A stretch of 64,000 nt of DNA. Origin: a virus (taxonomy: Duplodnaviria; Heunggongvirae; Uroviricota; Caudoviricetes). The stretch covers positions 307,105 to 371,104 of the IMG/VR virus record IMGVR_UViG_3300042256_000013. One strand, given 5' to 3'. Positions within the stretch are counted from its first letter, which is position 1; every line of letters begins with the position of its first letter. Positions 19,045 through 28,058 of the stretch are shown here, piece after piece. Under the pieces are notes generated by a model that was given only the letters and a program-made list of their open reading frames with translations, did not search any database and was not told where the DNA came from. The position numbers and the translations under genes were made by a program.

Positions 19045-20487
19045 TTATAGATTTTCTTCTGCAAACGCAGCAAGAACAGAACGTTGTACGCCCTCTAACT
19101 CAATGATTCTGCAACCTTCCCAATCTTTGAATTTCTCGGTTACATAAGTCAAACCTGAGTTGGTAGGACTAATGAACTTATTATCAATCTGAGATAAGTT
19201 ACCCATGATGATCACTTTACAGTTTTCACCAGCACGAGTAAGAATTGTTTTTGCTTGAGCAGGAGTAATGTTCTGGAATTCATCAACAATCAAGATTGTA
19301 TTGATGAAACTACGACCACGAACAAAGTTCAATGCTTTGAATTGGAAGACATTACGTTTCATAATTTCTTCAATTGAACCTTGTGGATTCGCATCGTCTT
19401 TATGCAGATACTCTAACGCATCCACAGCAGCACCACAGAATGGCATTACTTTTTCTAGTTCTGAACCTGGCAAGAAGCCGATTTCTTCGAACTGAGAATC
19501 TTGTGTTTTAGAGAAGATAATACGGTCATATTTCTTCTTCTCTAGTACTAATTCAAGTGCAGTTGCAATAGTGATTAACGTTTTACCAGTACCTGCTGGA
19601 CCTAATAGGATTGTAAGATGTACATCTTTATCCATAATAGAGTTAATAGCCATTGCTTGTTGAATGTTCTTGGCTTTAATATCCCATACTTTACGAGACA
19701 TAGCTTTCGCTAAACCTACATCGCTGAAACATAACATGTCACGATCATCATCTGCATCAAGTACTGAAGCATAACCTTCAAATACGAATAGACCATCTGA
19801 CTTATCATAAATGTAATCACCAATGAATAAATCAGAAGGAAGAATGTGTTTAACATTTTCTTCTGGAATCATGTGAACTAGTTTCGAACCAGCTTGATTT
19901 GAATACACTACATCACCAACTTCAGCCCAAAAATCTTCTACTTCCAATTCGTGATTGCCAGTATGGATTAGGTCAGAGTCTTCAATAGTTACATCGTGAC
20001 GATAATCTTGTACTTCAACACCGTATGCCAGTGCTTTAATACGCATATTAATGTCGCGAGTTACTAGAACTGCTTGTGATAGTTTAGCAACTAAGATGAT
20101 TTCGTCATCTGGTACTGTACTTTTGAAAAGAGTGTCAAGCTTAGGATCGAAGGTTTCAGAATCCAAATTTGGGTTCGCCATATGCCAGATTGCTGTAAGT
20201 TCTTCGATTGTTAGTACAAATAGACGAGTGTCTGCGTTGATGTGTGGGTGGGTTTTTGAAATCTGAACACCTTCAGTGCTGATTTCTTCATGAGTTGCTG
20301 TTTCAAGAATAGAACTAATGTTGCGAATAGCAACACGTGCATCTCGTGAAATATCAACTTTACGACTCTTGATGGAATCTAATTCTTCAAGTACTTTGAA
20401 CGGTAGAATTACATGTGAACCTTCAAACGCTAGGATTGCGTTAGGATCACCAAGAATCACGTTTGTGTCAAGAACATATTTTTTCAT
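19045..20487 (-). CDS. phoH: PhoH2-type PIN-PhoH ATPase
   Basis: N-term PIN YVLDTNV...VLEELD...PDDEI...TRDINMR; GPAGTGKT, RGRSF, VDEFQN. Confidence 0.92.
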   Translation of the reverse strand: MKKYVLDTNVILGDPNAILAFEGSHVILPFKVLEELDSIKSRKVDISRDARVAIRNISSILETATHEEISTEGVQISKTHPHINADTRLFVLTIEELTAIWHMANPNLDSETFDPKLDTLFKSTVPDDEIILVAKLSQAVLVTRDINMRIKALAYGVEVQDYRHDVTIEDSDLIHTGNHELEVEDFWAEVGDVVYSNQAGSKLVHMIPEENVKHILPSDLFIGDYIYDKSDGLFVFEGYASVLDADDDRDMLCFSDVGLAKAMSRKVWDIKAKNIQQAMAINSIMDKDVHLTILLGPAGTGKTLITIATALELVLEKKKYDRIIFSKTQDSQFEEIGFLPGSELEKVMPFCGAAVDALEYLHKDDANPQGSIEEIMKRNVFQFKALNFVRGRSFINTILIVDEFQNITPAQAKTILTRAGENCKVIIMGNLSQIDNKFISPTNSGLTYVTEKFKDWEGCRIIELEGVQRSVLAAFAEENL

Positions 20488-20559
20488 AAACATCCTTTTT
20501 GTGTTTGTGTGTGGTAACACGTTGTTTTTCCTAACTGTATTTAATGCTCCAAAATACAG

Positions 20560-20865
20560 TTAGTTTTTGACTGGCTGATAATCCACATAGCACTGGTTTC
20601 CTTGTGCTTCTTCATACCAGCACTCTTGATATACCAATTGCCCTAAGACAACTGGTTTATCAGAGATAGCCGATTTCTTATTACCGAATTGATCGGTATA
20701 TTGGAACGAACATTGATTATTTGAAGTGCATTGGCCTAAGCCATAAACTTGTCCGACATTATAATAAACGTTCTGATGTTCAGTACTTTTATGATTTATG
20801 GAAATAGTAGTTAATATCCATGTCAATACAGCAGAAATTATTAAACACCAGATTAAACGTTTCAT
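20560..20865 (-). CDS. Membrane-anchored Cys-containing hypothetical protein
   Basis: N-terminal TM/signal segment and four Cys in the soluble part. Confidence 0.55.
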   Translation of the reverse strand: MKRLIWCLIISAVLTWILTTISINHKSTEHQNVYYNVGQVYGLGQCTSNNQCSFQYTDQFGNKKSAISDKPVVLGQLVYQECWYEEAQGNQCYVDYQPVKN

Positions 20866-21770
20866 TATAGACTCCGAATAAATTTAAATGCATTATCCAA
20901 ATATGCAACAATATTCATTGCTCCAATGGGATTGGCACTATGAACATGATATTCAAATGGACTTCCAATTTGATTATCAATCATGTACTCAACTAAGAAT
21001 TTAGCAAAGGTATATCCCGTTTCTTCATCTTCATTTTCAGTATCGCCTAAATCGTGATCGAAAGAAATAAAGGACGGCAACCCATGTTCGTTGACGTAAT
21101 CAACTGCTTCTTGATATGTGCGACAAACAACCATTTCCTCATTAGGATAGTACTTTTCAACATCACGAAGATCATCCAAGAACATCTTATATGAAGTTTC
21201 AGTTTTGTCATCATCCACATAGTCAATAAGCAGATTCTTTGAGCGAACAAGCTTCATCAGTTCAAATTTAGCAGTACCGACAAAGTTTTGTTCTAACAGA
21301 ATGTTCCAACCACATTCAATCTTGTTACCTTTAAGGTAACGACATGTATGTAATAAGTTCACACCTGCATTTTCAGCAGCAAAGTGTACGCCATTATGTG
21401 CGTTATTACGAATTTCCAGAAGTTCATCATATGATACTTCTAACGAAAACGCATGGTTGTGAGAACCAATTACGGTATTTTTATAACTTACCAATGGTTG
21501 TAAACGATCCATCGGTAAATCATAATCGATTTCTTCTTTGGCTTCACGCATAACAGCGATTTCCAGACTTGGGTCATCGTGTTCTACCATTCCACCTACT
21601 GCACCCAGCAAACCATCATACCGCAATTCTGACAGTACTAAACTAACGTTAGGAATGTCATTATAAGGATAGTTAGCATAAGGAGTACAGTCTTTTGCAT
21701 AAATCCATACGAACACACAATCATAACGTTCAGATCGTGTGCCGAATGGAATTTCTTGATACATAGCCAC
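20865..21770 (-). CDS. NUDT16-like Nudix hydrolase fused to a cyclic-phosphate-processing receiver-like domain
   Basis: LRYDGLLGAVGGMVE...REAKEE Nudix box; C-term FLDDLR...ISFDHDLG...TGY...HSANPIG. Confidence 0.75.
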   Translation of the reverse strand: MAMYQEIPFGTRSERYDCVFVWIYAKDCTPYANYPYNDIPNVSLVLSELRYDGLLGAVGGMVEHDDPSLEIAVMREAKEEIDYDLPMDRLQPLVSYKNTVIGSHNHAFSLEVSYDELLEIRNNAHNGVHFAAENAGVNLLHTCRYLKGNKIECGWNILLEQNFVGTAKFELMKLVRSKNLLIDYVDDDKTETSYKMFLDDLRDVEKYYPNEEMVVCRTYQEAVDYVNEHGLPSFISFDHDLGDTENEDEETGYTFAKFLVEYMIDNQIGSPFEYHVHSANPIGAMNIVAYLDNAFKFIRSL

Positions 21771-21781
21771 TTTGAGTACCT

Positions 21782-22567
21782 TTAGTATTCAGTTAAATCA
21801 GAAACATTCATACGTTGTTCTACGTACAATTCCAGAACTTCAATTGCCTCAGAAACTGGCTGATATAAGTTATAAGAAAAATAATCATCTTTCTCATGTT
21901 TTTCTGGATTCACGTTAACTACCAATGCATTTGTTGCGAGGCCAGCATAAATGCTCCAGGGAATAACAGTGTCTGAAGAACCAATTACAATGACAGTATC
22001 TTGGAAAGTTAAACTATCCAGTACTGAATACAGATCATCATAAATGTGTTTACGAACACCATCTTTGAACCAGAACGTTTCGCCGAACATTACTACATTA
22101 GGTTTAGAAATAACACCATCAGTTGGTGTATGTTCTGTATAACCAATATCACGAACTCGGTAGTTCTGATCATTAGTACTGTACGGTTCTACAACTTCAG
22201 TTAAGAAACCATGTAAGTGCATTGCAGTACCACCAGCACGTTCAGCAAGGTCATCAACGTTAGCAGTAATGTGAATTACATTTTCATCTCCGTAGAGTTG
22301 TTGCATACGTGCGATGAACTCATGACCAACATTCGGTTCATAGTTCTGAAGACCAACTCGCATGTTATTGTAGAAACGGTGAACCAGATCATAGTTAATG
22401 TCAAACGTTGCAATATTGCAAACTGTATCTACACTAACACCATCCCACAAGCCTTCTCCGGCAGCATCACGGAAAGTCTGAATTCCAGATTCTTTGGATA
22501 GTCCTGCACCAGTTGCAAATACAAGTCGTGGTTGGCCTTTATTTGCCAGAAAGCTTTCGAGATTCAT
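21782..22567 (-). CDS. Sir2/CobB-family NAD-dependent deacylase
   Basis: TGAGLSKESGIQTFRD, PNVGH, TANVDDL, HLHG, KPNVVMFGE, IGSS, NVNP. Confidence 0.9.
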   Translation of the reverse strand: MNLESFLANKGQPRLVFATGAGLSKESGIQTFRDAAGEGLWDGVSVDTVCNIATFDINYDLVHRFYNNMRVGLQNYEPNVGHEFIARMQQLYGDENVIHITANVDDLAERAGGTAMHLHGFLTEVVEPYSTNDQNYRVRDIGYTEHTPTDGVISKPNVVMFGETFWFKDGVRKHIYDDLYSVLDSLTFQDTVIVIGSSDTVIPWSIYAGLATNALVVNVNPEKHEKDDYFSYNLYQPVSEAIEVLELYVEQRMNVSDLTEY

Positions 22568-24645: not shown

Positions 24646-24673
24646 AAAAAGAAGGGAGAGCAATGCTCTCCCT
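24646..24673 (-). terminator. Intrinsic terminator after nadV
   Basis: AGGGAGAGCA/TGCTCTCCCT stem. Confidence 0.8.
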
Positions 24674-24678
24674 AAGTC

Positions 24679-26193
24679 TTACAAACCTTTGTTCGCTCGC
24701 TCACGAACATCATCAAAGTTACTGAGATTGAAAATCTCACCATCGATGTAAATATCAACCATCATATCTTTAAGGAAGTGGTTGACTTCCTGAAGCTCAA
24801 TGCGTTCAGCAATGATTTTGTGTGAATTGGTGCATTCATAGGTAGTCACACGACCACGCAGAGAACGTTTACCCACATCAGTGATTGGATCTTTGAACAG
24901 ATCTTCCCACGTGCCATCAGCCAATTGCTGAGCAGAACCTTTCATTGCGAATGAATAGGTATCGCGACCTTTTTCTGGATGAACCAGTTTACCACCCATA
25001 CCGAACACAAGGTTCTCAATGGAATAGTTCTTAGCTTCCAAGTTCGCAACGATTTGGCGAATGCTGTCTTCGTTGATACCATCACCCTGAATTACACCGA
25101 TGAAACTTGGCAGTACTTTGAAGCCATTAGCATTCAGAGTAGTACCGAATTTGTCTGCCAGAATATCCAGGATCTCAATTGGCATAGTAGTAGCATCACC
25201 ACTATCTGGACGCATGACAAGACGAGCACCAGGACAACGTGCTGCGATTTCAATGATCATCTCTTTCAGACGAGTACCGATGAATTCACGAACGAAGCGG
25301 TAAGCATCATACGTATCAATTACTATTGAAACGATCGGTGGAACACCTTTCGAACCTTTAGCAATGAACGCATCAACTTTTTTCTCCCACAACCGAACCA
25401 TTTTCAGAGCCATATTAAAGTCGTCGCGTTTGTCTGCGTCAGAGTTAGAGCAAGTAGCACTATGCTCAGAAGCAGTTACTGAACTCAAATATGCTTTGTC
25501 AGTGTGGAAGTATTTTTTAATGTAACGGTTCGCAGACAGACAATCAGAACCACTGAAGATCATTGCGTGAGACATACCCGCCAGAATCGCTGATTCAAAG
25601 CTGGATGCACCGCGATCACCGAAGTTGTGAAGATGGTAGTCAACAAAGCGATGCCCTGCGTGACGTTCCATAGTGTCTGCTAAAAACTCTTTAATGCTGC
25701 GAGCATTACTTGCTACAGTAGTAGGGAACCACACTGCACGTTGCAACTGAGTCTCGATATAACTTGCGATAACGCAAACACGAGGGTCAGTACTGAAAGA
25801 ACGTACCAGAGGGCAACCAACCGGAACTAAAGTACCTTCAGGAACAGCACGGATATGTACAGGAATTTTACCGCCATGTACTTCCAGAATATGTTCCCAA
25901 AAACCGCGATCAAAATCATCGCCACGTTGTTCGGTTTCAAGTTCTGCTTCATCAATATCATCAATTGTAATAGTGATATTCAAATACTTCTGAACGTAGT
26001 ATTGAAGACCAGCCATTACAACATGTGTTGCGTACTTTGAAGGTTTACGAGCGATGATGTTACTTTCAAGAGCTACTACGCCCTCTTTCATCATGAAGCC
26101 GTGACCAGTTTTATACGAGTCAACGTTGAGGATAAAGTTTACGTTATCAGAGAACTCTGTAACGCCGTTAAAAGTTTTGTTAGTATTAGTCAT
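24679..26193 (-). CDS. nadV: Nicotinamide phosphoribosyltransferase (Nampt)
   Basis: VDSYKTGH, HNFGDRG, ASEHS, SIVIDTYD, RPDSGD, IQGDGI, FGMGG, KDPITDVGKRS. Confidence 0.95.
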   Translation of the reverse strand: MTNTNKTFNGVTEFSDNVNFILNVDSYKTGHGFMMKEGVVALESNIIARKPSKYATHVVMAGLQYYVQKYLNITITIDDIDEAELETEQRGDDFDRGFWEHILEVHGGKIPVHIRAVPEGTLVPVGCPLVRSFSTDPRVCVIASYIETQLQRAVWFPTTVASNARSIKEFLADTMERHAGHRFVDYHLHNFGDRGASSFESAILAGMSHAMIFSGSDCLSANRYIKKYFHTDKAYLSSVTASEHSATCSNSDADKRDDFNMALKMVRLWEKKVDAFIAKGSKGVPPIVSIVIDTYDAYRFVREFIGTRLKEMIIEIAARCPGARLVMRPDSGDATTMPIEILDILADKFGTTLNANGFKVLPSFIGVIQGDGINEDSIRQIVANLEAKNYSIENLVFGMGGKLVHPEKGRDTYSFAMKGSAQQLADGTWEDLFKDPITDVGKRSLRGRVTTYECTNSHKIIAERIELQEVNHFLKDMMVDIYIDGEIFNLSNFDDVRERANKGL

Positions 26194-26195
26194 AT

Positions 26196-26260
26196 CTAAG
26201 ACTCCCTTAGTTATTAAGTTTAAGTGAAAGCTACAACGCTTTCATTATTTGGTTATACCA
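26196..26260 (-). promoter_or_regulatory. nadV leader: extended -10 (TGGTATAAC), GUUGUA-loop hairpin, SD-containing hairpin
   Basis: Second copy at 27913-27980 with compensatory stem changes. Confidence 0.7.
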
Positions 26261-26771
26261 AATGCTGTAATAAATTTACTGGTATTTTTGCCAATAAAGT
26301 TCGTGGTTCGAACATATCAGAATGTACCCTGATATATGAGGATATATCATACGGATTATTATACAGATTCAACGCAATTGCATCAAGTGAAAACTCATAC
26401 AAGTCTCCATATTCATCTGAATTACAGTAATGAAGTGTGCCATCTTTTTGCATTGAAATTTCAGTAATATCACGTGCTACAAATAAATTTCCCCGATCTA
26501 TTTGTCCAAAGTACGTTTGTGCCATTCGATCACTCTTATGCGGTACTAGACCATTATTTGTGCCATAAGTTCTTAGTGCGAATATACGGTTAGTTTCTTC
26601 AGTTTCTGGTTCACTCAGAACCATCTTAATCAAATATTGTATCGGGTCAATATGCTCAATGTTATCAGGTATTTTGTACTCTGTCAAGCATATTTTTTTC
26701 ATAAAATTATCACGATTATCTGAAATGTATTTCATTTCATTGAAAAATCGTTCAGGTTGACAAAATAACAT
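26253..26771 (-). CDS. Hypothetical protein between natV and nadV
   Basis: ORF with SD (GAGG). Confidence 0.55.
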   Translation of the reverse strand: MLFCQPERFFNEMKYISDNRDNFMKKICLTEYKIPDNIEHIDPIQYLIKMVLSEPETEETNRIFALRTYGTNNGLVPHKSDRMAQTYFGQIDRGNLFVARDITEISMQKDGTLHYCNSDEYGDLYEFSLDAIALNLYNNPYDISSYIRVHSDMFEPRTLLAKIPVNLLQHLV

Positions 26772-26786
26772 AATATCCTCTCAATT

Positions 26787-26811
26787 AAAATGGAGTACCT
26801 TTCAGTACTCC
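26787..26811 (-). terminator. Intrinsic terminator after natV
   Basis: GGAGTAC-TGAAAG-GTACTCC-ATTTT. Confidence 0.7.
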
Positions 26812-26818
26812 AAAACTC

Positions 26819-27910
26819 TTACAGAATACCCAGGAAAGTATCAATGATACTCAAATGGTCTTCAAAGAATTTATCACGATTCTTAACCAACTCACCCAGC
26901 GGCATCCAGAATGCTTTTTCAGCATCATCAGAACCTTTTACTTTTGGTAAAGTATTGTCCTGAAGTTGGATATGTGCACAACGGGTAATGATACGCCAAC
27001 GAAGTGAACGATTGAAATCACCGAATTCCATACTTTCACGGATTGAACCTTCCAGTACTTTCATCGGAACATCAATCTTCGTTTCTTCTTTGAGTTCACG
27101 AAGTGCAGTTTGAACCTGATCTTTGTCTTGCCATGCGTCAAAGAACCCGCCAGGAAGTGCGTATAAACCTTTACCTGGGAAAGTACGACGCTTAACCAAA
27201 AGTACGTGACCAGCACAAATTACCAGAGCATCACCCGTCAAGAACGGAATGTTGTCATACGGTAGTTTTTCTTTCATCTCTGAACGATAACGTTGTACAA
27301 AATTGAATTCGCCAATCAGGTTATCGAACACCATTGGTTTCGTTTTCATGAACTTTTCCAGAAACTCTTTAGTTTCTTCTGGAAGAGATTCAGGAACTTG
27401 TTTAGTACTGAAGAACTGATGACGCATTGCAGTACTGTTAAAGGTTTCATTTTCGAGACGATCACCTTTATTAACTACATGCGTAGCTTCCGTCACAAAA
27501 TCCTGATTCCACTGCGGGAAGAAGTTCAGATAGAAAGTACTTGCATCAGCTTCTTTCTGACAACCAGTAATGAAAATATTTTCACTTTGAGTTACAGATT
27601 TCACTTTTTCATGAACTTCCATCAACCATTTGCTGTTGTTATATACGTAGTCGTGGATTGGAAGGATGTTAACCTTAACCGAACGTCCTTTAGCCCATTC
27701 TGCTTGTGCTAAACGACTAGACATAGCATCCAGTACTTGCTTGCGTTCTTCGAAGGTAAACGGATTCTTTGAATCACGTGCCATATCAGAAGAACCAACC
27801 AGGATTACCAAACGGTCTGAATTTTCTAATGCGTGTTTAATGGTAGCTTCATGACCAGCATGTGCCATCTGGAAACGACCAATATATACATAAACTTTTT
27901 CGTTTTTCAT
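26819..27910 (-). CDS. natV: Bifunctional NMN adenylyltransferase / Nudix ADP-ribose pyrophosphatase (NadM-Nudix)
   Basis: YIGRFQMAHAGH (HxGH), KNPFTFEER, NSTAMR; Nudix ALPGGF...ALRELKEET, GSDDA; start moved to MKNEKV. Confidence 0.93.
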   Translation of the reverse strand: MKNEKVYVYIGRFQMAHAGHEATIKHALENSDRLVILVGSSDMARDSKNPFTFEERKQVLDAMSSRLAQAEWAKGRSVKVNILPIHDYVYNNSKWLMEVHEKVKSVTQSENIFITGCQKEADASTFYLNFFPQWNQDFVTEATHVVNKGDRLENETFNSTAMRHQFFSTKQVPESLPEETKEFLEKFMKTKPMVFDNLIGEFNFVQRYRSEMKEKLPYDNIPFLTGDALVICAGHVLLVKRRTFPGKGLYALPGGFFDAWQDKDQVQTALRELKEETKIDVPMKVLEGSIRESMEFGDFNRSLRWRIITRCAHIQLQDNTLPKVKGSDDAEKAFWMPLGELVKNRDKFFEDHLSIIDTFLGIL

Positions 27911-27912
27911 TT

Positions 27913-28058
27913 CTAAGACTCCCTTAGTCATTATTGAGACAAGGCTACAACGCCTTGATGTTTGTATTATAGCATAAAAATCAGCGTCGTTCCAAGTTTT
28001 TTGGCTCGCTGACTCCATAGAACGATGAAATATTAGCAAATTATCTTATGGTCGTCAA
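27913..28058 (-). promoter_or_regulatory. natV leader (same two-hairpin motif) with two sigma70 promoters
   Basis: TTGGAA-N18-TATAAT (-10 at 27966-27971) and TTGACG-N17-TAATAT (28030-28058). Confidence 0.7.

Follow-up and report, generated by a model that had tools for sequence, protein, structure and literature searches.

The 64,000-nt window analysed here (positions 307,105 to 371,104 of IMG/VR virus record IMGVR_UViG_3300042256_000013) comes from the complete 371,104-nt genome of a Mimasvirus-like jumbo phage. Over this region it shares 91% identity with Xanthomonas phage XbC2 (Mimasvirus) and with Erwinia phage Kaldavass, and the region is also related to other Rak2-like jumbo phages. Its minus strand carries two genes for the salvage of nicotinamide adenine dinucleotide (NAD), natV and nadV, each preceded by a leader of two short RNA hairpins, the second of which presents the Shine-Dalgarno (SD) sequence in its loop. 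Judged by gene content, the two genes form a NARP2 pair, in which a nicotinamide phosphoribosyltransferase (NAMPT) and a nicotinamide mononucleotide (NMN) adenylyltransferase (NMNAT)-Nudix protein occur in one phage; the gene identities proposed in an earlier note on this DNA, natV and nadV, were both borne out, the products being NadM-Nudix and NAMPT. The leaders and the genes behind them are located as follows.

27940..27957, minus strand: natV leader hairpin 1, a 6-bp stem with loop GUUGUA and a C-G closing pair (from sequence and folding)
27913..27927, minus strand: natV leader hairpin 2, weak, a CUAAG/CUUAG stem whose loop GGAGU is the SD sequence (AUG at 27910)
26819..27910, minus strand: natV, encoding NadM-Nudix (NMN adenylyltransferase and ADP-ribose pyrophosphatase domain), 363 aa, the proposed reader of the leader
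26225..26244, minus strand: nadV leader hairpin 1, a 7-bp stem with loop GUUGUA and a C-G closing pair (from sequence and folding)
26196..26210, minus strand: nadV leader hairpin 2, identical to that of natV (AUG at 26193)
24679..26193, minus strand: nadV, encoding the nicotinamide phosphoribosyltransferase, 504 aa

Both two-hairpin sequences quoted in the earlier note stand at their minus-strand positions in front of the two genes, and hairpin 2 is the same in both, SD sequence included. Hairpin 1 is strong (about -8 kcal/mol) and hairpin 2 is weak (-2 to -3 kcal/mol). The claim that hairpin 1 keeps its loop while its stem covaries holds in this phage and in its relatives. Every orthologous leader of the Rak2-like relatives was inspected without selection; the hairpin 1 stems vary widely in sequence yet pair throughout, and they enclose G-N(1-2)-G-N-A loops. 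Hairpin 2 is inverted to CUUAG/CUAAG in K64-1 (L051) and is a short CC-NAAGA-GG hairpin in the nadV leaders of the Munch and EJP2 types. The loop-to-loop distance is 24-32 nt wherever both hairpins were called in these relatives.

The motif had been seen nowhere else in the window, and this holds for the entire genome: a 10-mer covering the hairpin 1 loop and a 10-mer spanning the SD sequence each occur exactly twice in 371,104 nt, both times in these leaders. Pattern and descriptor searches gave no convincing additional copy in the genome. A genome-wide covariance-model search is uninformative on this point because it missed even both true copies. Two covariance models from which all Rak2-like sequences had been excluded place the two leaders first and second when the 64-kb window is searched with filters off.

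The two leaders belong to a much wider family. It was sampled upstream of 479 distinct genes for NadV or NadM-Nudix, taken from viral contigs, metagenomes and bacterial genomes. The family plan is a covarying 5' hairpin with a conserved loop, followed about 28 nt on by a weak hairpin whose loop presents the SD sequence at 8-13 nt from the start codon; the two loops keep a spacing of 24-32 nt. The upstream pentaloops include G-AUAGA-C, C-AGAGA-G, G-ACAGA-C, C-AGUGA-G and others, and the SD loop reads GGA-N-N. The genes so preceded are nadM-Nudix (natV), nadV and nadA, in many phages and bacteria, Caulobacter and cyanobacteria among them. Both hairpins were found in 226/479 nadV and natV leaders; among the other genes with an SD sequence in these loci, 22/740 had them, which speaks for the specificity of the element. 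Roughly half of the 22 control matches are the first genes of operons that lead to nadM, or are nadA. In four whole bacterial genomes the model matches only nadM and nadV leaders; a fifth has one weak off-target match. Hairpin 2 is the commoner of the two (407 vs 301 of 531 leaders). The comparison by covariance model and Rfam that the earlier note had proposed yields a conserved, covarying family without an Rfam match: Rfam 15 gave none at gathering score in the window, and in six leader-bearing loci no match with an E value up to 10 overlapped the leader. Literature searches retrieved no described nadM or nadV RNA motif.

When the leaders are anchored on the loop sequence alone, 86% of the flanking pairs are Watson-Crick or GU; this count replaces those from alignment A3, which were inflated because its rows had been chosen for having stems. 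Next to the loop, GU outnumbers AC by 50:4 on the mRNA strand, which points to an RNA element on the coding strand rather than a DNA site. In alphaproteobacteria both hairpin loops are GGAGU, as expected for two equivalent sites of a protein. On this comparative evidence, the leader family is a widespread, uncatalogued cis-regulatory RNA of NAD-synthesis genes, present here in a Rak2-specific hexaloop form.

Several observations stand beside this survey. A leader or descriptor match also precedes other genes near the NAD cassette (L226:6671, L317:5620, L058:2259, L284:633, L091:2645, L105:5758, L108:2072 and L184:2032). Some phage or metagenome contigs carry nadA, the quinolinate synthase gene, beside nadM-Nudix (L014:754-1683 and L321:333-1025), which brings de novo genes into the cassette. 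The other genes with a leader or descriptor match are a gene for a 214-aa protein, small first genes of natV operons, and those of two similar proteins downstream of nadV, which we take to be SPFH-like and which had no NCBIfam match. The C-AGAGA-G loop resembles what we take to be the loop read by PyrR; the likeness was set aside, as most family members differ.

The distribution of the leader follows nadM-Nudix rather than nadV. Among 351 genomes of Gammaproteobacteria, the four with linked nadM-Nudix and nadV have the leader on both genes; no leader was found in nine with nadV in which nadM-Nudix was not found, in three with a lone divergent nadM, or in two with unlinked genes. Among 251 genomes of Burkholderiales, 21 have nadM-Nudix with no nadV found. 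The leader stands before nadA in 13/13 nadA-nadM operons in which nadV was not found (5 by model and 8 variant forms by eye), and it was not seen in five nadV-only genomes. Taken together, the leader was found in none of the nadV-only genomes examined, nor without nadM-Nudix. NadV therefore appears neither needed nor sufficient for the leader, since the leader occurs without nadV and is absent from the nadV-only genomes examined. Model R2 was applied to 160 Burkholderiales genomes, with no more than 75 candidates scored in each, and missed known leaders; where nadM-Nudix was lacking, its best match (L491, upstream of a gene for a repeat-rich protein, loop AGAUG, E 0.005) is no better than chance. 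Among phages, those with prs-nadV and no natV in the locus have no SD hairpin, and most of those with natV have one; the KVP40-like phage ValKK3 has hairpin 2 only, before natV. One prs-nadV phage, a Pakpunavirus (L411:1235-1261), has before nadV/Namat a strong hairpin about 40 nt from the start, with a GAUGU(A) loop like the Rak2 form and no SD hairpin.

The loops also track the NatV lineage. Within a genome, the loop is identical between the nadV and natV leaders in 53/97 cases, compared with 15 by shuffling, and the stems are different. Loop class requires 12 changes on the NatV tree and 17 on the NadV tree; taken from the nadV leaders only, it requires 7 (bootstrap 7-9) on the NatV tree and 12 (10-13) on the NadV tree. 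The Rak2-like phages would then represent a lineage variant, in which the hexaloop G-N-W-G-U-A is paired with a variant NatV. In their NatV the Nudix box is longer by two inserted residues (FFDAWQD, about residues 254-262, window 27130-27150), and RSLRWR replaces the family RSLRGR (about residues 301-307, window 26990-27010). These changes lie near the predicted ADP-ribose site and may accompany either the variant loop or an altered catalysis.

NatV was modelled with a predicted local distance difference test score (pLDDT) of 88. One segment of the protein differs with the presence of the leader.

27041..27073, minus strand: NatV codons 280-290, DVPMKVLEGSI (family form KVPxPVLxGSI), on the C-terminal side of the Nudix box; may contact RNA or serve in assembly

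Of all stretches of the protein, residues 280-290 differ most between NatVs with and without a leader (0.42 vs a mean of 0.08; 213/241 vs 6/26). On a tree built without those columns, the segment decays more than the remaining protein in 6/6 usable independent leader-less lineages; 6 of 11 contrasts were used, the other 5 being void as L243 had been wrongly labelled leader-bearing. The segment is intact in Synechocystis NadM (2QJO), is changed in Francisella NadM (2QJT), and is shortened and lacks the insertion in NrtR. No leader was found in eight Burkholderiales with a degenerate segment.

We consider it probable, on this comparative evidence, that NatV represses the translation of its own pathway by binding both hairpins, which would make the leader an autogenous two-site operator. 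The structured site overlaps the ribosome-binding site of the proposed regulator's own mRNA, and site and protein co-occur and appear to co-evolve, with the caveats on trees, descriptors and metagenome-assembled genomes (MAGs) given below. A NatV oligomer would bind both hairpin loops, with the strong upstream hairpin as its anchor, and bound NatV would stabilise the weak SD hairpin and block 30S entry. NatV would thereby cap its own amount and that of the upstream enzyme, which is NadV here and NadA in some bacteria. Such a brake fits one report (10.1101/2024.02.11.579819), in which NARP2 overproduces NAD+, drains phosphoribosyl pyrophosphate (PRPP) without any defence and is toxic in E. coli; the substrate-limited NARP1 would need none. 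More weakly, and by analogy with NrtR and NadR (PMC2330246), NAD+ cleavage may end the binding: ADP-ribose would enter the Nudix site, which adjoins segment 280-290, or the NMNAT site would lose its NAD+. The pathway would then be turned up when host NADase defences fire. The broader proposal, that NatV is a moonlighting RNA-binding sensor of a post-transcriptional NAD regulon (nadM, nadV and nadA) in phages and bacteria that ADP-ribose releases, is put forward tentatively, as possible but short of probable. If ADP-ribose does release NatV, phages would switch on NAD+ rebuilding upon the very product of NADase immunity.

A number of points weigh against repression by NatV. The literature searched holds no description of RNA binding by NadM-Nudix, segment 280-290 is poor in basic residues and is missing from 14/265 leader-bearing NatVs, and it could serve oligomer or domain contacts instead of RNA contact. 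Eight of the 13 nadA leaders were identified by visual inspection. Many of the genomes are MAGs that are incomplete, so an absent nadV or nadM means one that was not found. The hairpin 2 descriptor alone is loose, passing 332/740 (45%) of the controls, so that calls of hairpin 2 only are weak. The descriptors and the loop classes are post hoc, having been drawn up with the data in view, and whole-genome model searches are low in sensitivity. The trees were made with FastTree and 16 bootstraps, and their result could also arise if the leaders follow the genome background while nadV coding regions get replaced.

The leader was compared with known systems. In the NAD+-II (pnuC) riboswitch, the G33:C46 pair binds nicotinamide and a G33A change abolishes binding (PMC7749635, PMC10085692). 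Like NAD+-II, the leader is short and ends in the SD sequence of a NAD gene, and the window copy has GCGUUG and an A-rich tail. It differs in that, when mapped onto the crystal construct, both window copies have A at the G33 position and U at that of C32. The P1 loop-SD pseudoknot also fails: with a loop of 5-6 nt no 5-bp SD pseudoknot is possible, the SD sequence lies in a local hairpin, and loop 1 and the SD loop show no pairing covariation in 230 leaders. The other members of the family have no such sequence. Judged by these features, the leader is not an NAD+-II riboswitch. The mini-NAD+-II riboswitch has an H-type pseudoknot core; compared with this core alone, the 230 leaders carry no pseudoknot signal. 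Guanidine-II (mini-ykkC) riboswitches consist of two short hairpins next to the SD sequence, with near-invariant loops that pair with each other and a variable linker. The leader shares the two short hairpins with related loops, the variable linker and the place next to the SD sequence; unlike in guanidine-II, its loops drift by lineage and do not cross-pair, and one of them is the SD sequence itself.

Among protein-read systems, operators read by enzymes in their own mRNAs are known from E. coli thrS, where the oligomeric ThrRS reads two stem-loops, and from phage T4 gene 43. The leader is like these in having hairpins at the ribosome-binding site of the enzyme's own mRNA and in that site and protein co-vary by lineage; it is unlike them in that the SD sequence lies inside the second loop, several genes (nadM, nadV and nadA) are targets, and the putative reader is a small-molecule enzyme without a known RNA substrate. 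CsrA/RsmA operators likewise have two hairpin loops, one over the SD sequence, that suit a two-site protein. They differ in that the leader is restricted to NAD genes and present where CsrA was not found, and a CsrA/RsmA site with GGA in both loops fails, the hairpin 1 loops being mostly AUAGA, AGAGA or ACAGA, or GUUGUA here. NrtR is a DNA-binding repressor with a winged-helix domain, whose Nudix domain is close to that of NadM and senses ADP-ribose (Rodionov et al. 2008, PMC2330246), and its regulon overlaps the targets of the leader (nadM-nadV and nadA). An NrtR operator was rejected, as the arms vary freely around a fixed centre and GU exceeds AC on one strand, unlike a DNA palindrome with conserved arms; the winged-helix domain PF21906 was not found in the complete phage genome, in a search that detected its controls. 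In cyanobacteria (L204, L220, L221, L242 and L463-L465) the leader precedes nadM in nadM-nadV operons. An NrtR DNA site is reported for this operon in Synechocystis (PMC2330246), and the two controls may be stacked there. The same gene pair as in the window forms the NARP2 of Vibrio phage KVP40, whose regulation is not described in the accessible part of the source (10.1101/2024.02.11.579819).

Other explanations of the leader remain to be weighed. A protein-free twin-hairpin riboswitch, in which NAD+, NMN, ADP-ribose or PRPP docks both loops, perhaps by non-canonical contacts, and alters access to the SD sequence, would suit two hairpins at a fixed spacing and a target set that spans de novo (nadA) and salvage (nadV and nadM) genes, as for cofactor riboswitches, and the window copy is superficially like NAD+-II (GCGUUG, an A-rich stretch, then the SD sequence). 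We think it unlikely. The base on which nicotinamide binding depends in NAD+-II is replaced here, there is no room for the pseudoknot, and the likeness is gone outside the Rak2-like phages; in addition, the two loops show no Watson-Crick covariation and differ between lineages in step with NatV, many members have no hairpin 1, and no case of the element without nadM-Nudix was found. Slightly less likely still is a reader other than NatV alone: NadV, a complex of NadV with NatV, or an RNA-binding protein of the host, for example CsrA. CsrA sites present GGA in a loop over the SD sequence, as hairpin 2 does, and both enzymes are present in most phage and many bacterial examples. Against it, GGA is absent from most hairpin 1 loops, searches for CsrA in this phage and in the Caulobacter control genome found none although Caulobacter and cyanobacteria have the element, and the target set is much narrower than that of a global regulator. 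The element also occurs without nadV and not with nadV alone.

Equally improbable is a leader with no trans reader at all, in which hairpin 2 damps the translation of costly enzymes and hairpin 1 shields the 5' end from decay. The wider spread of hairpin 2, the position of hairpin 1 at the predicted natV 5' end, and the cost of unchecked NARP2, as given in 10.1101/2024.02.11.579819, would agree with it. It leaves unexplained the conserved loop with free stems, the loop shared within a genome, the 24-32 nt spacing, the occurrence of hairpin 1 at internal intergenic positions and the link to the NatV segment. That NatV binds the leader and instead activates translation by opening hairpin 2, as positive feedback in infection, draws on the same co-distribution, which does not fix the sign of the effect; it is the least likely of these readings, for hairpin 2 is weak enough to open alone, the SD bases are the conserved loop that a protein would cover, and unchecked NARP2 is costly (10.1101/2024.02.11.579819). 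The earlier note's idea of a NAD regulon with a cis element at the ribosome-binding site thus stands, at a far wider extent than noted; of the two modes of action it offered, a protein operator with NatV autoregulation fits best and a small riboswitch is disfavoured.

The remaining features of the locus concern transcription.

27966..27995, minus strand: natV promoter-like site, TTGGAA-18 nt-TG-TATAAT; predicted start about 2 nt before hairpin 1 (start inferred)
26791..26812, minus strand: terminator-like hairpin 3' of natV, 9 bp with a short U tail; not in all relatives
26253..26771, minus strand: 172-aa open reading frame (ORF), function not assigned (phrog_25832), between natV and nadV by synteny, without a leader
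26252..26260, minus strand: putative nadV extended -10, doubtful; overlaps the stop of the 172-aa ORF and has no -35
24653..24673, minus strand: intrinsic terminator-like site 3' of nadV

Each leader had been placed at an mRNA 5' end behind its own extended -10. For natV this is well predicted, and Rak2-like relatives have the extended -10 as well. The nadV promoter is questionable and the nadV 5' end unproven, because its "-10" covers the last codons and stop of the 172-aa ORF, is without a -35 and is not kept in several relatives. In many environmental phages (L059, L061, L062, L066, L131 and similar) the natV leader is preceded by TATAAATA, a T4 late-type promoter, and not by a sigma-70 -10, which suggests that the leader is used with different promoter classes. 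The genes were also described as split by a terminator and an unrelated ORF. Both are present here; the position of the ORF is kept in most Rak2-like phages, and the terminator is not universal. The three genes are probably partly co-transcribed, judging from the synteny of the middle ORF and because natV adjoins the next ORF, with no terminator between, in some Rak2-like phages (Munch-like). In RaK2 an HNH endonuclease gene takes the place between natV and nadV (L050:1703-2728), and in K64-1 (L051) nothing does; the nadV leader is unchanged in both. None of three genes located 2-4 kb downstream of nadV (20865-22567 and 19045-20520) has a leader: one of the Sir2 family, a two-domain ORF resembling Nudix proteins, and one for PIN-PhoH.

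NAD+ is a cofactor with few known RNA-level controls, and the literature searched holds no description of phage regulation of NARP2. Direct sensing of a metabolite by the RNA would make it a new class of riboswitch for such a cofactor. If NatV reads the leader, as we favour, this would be a new regulon in proteobacteria, cyanobacteria and many phages, and it would give an RNA-binding role to an enzyme with a solved structure (2QJO). If release by ADP-ribose is also true, the system would be an RNA-level counterpart of NrtR built into the enzyme itself.

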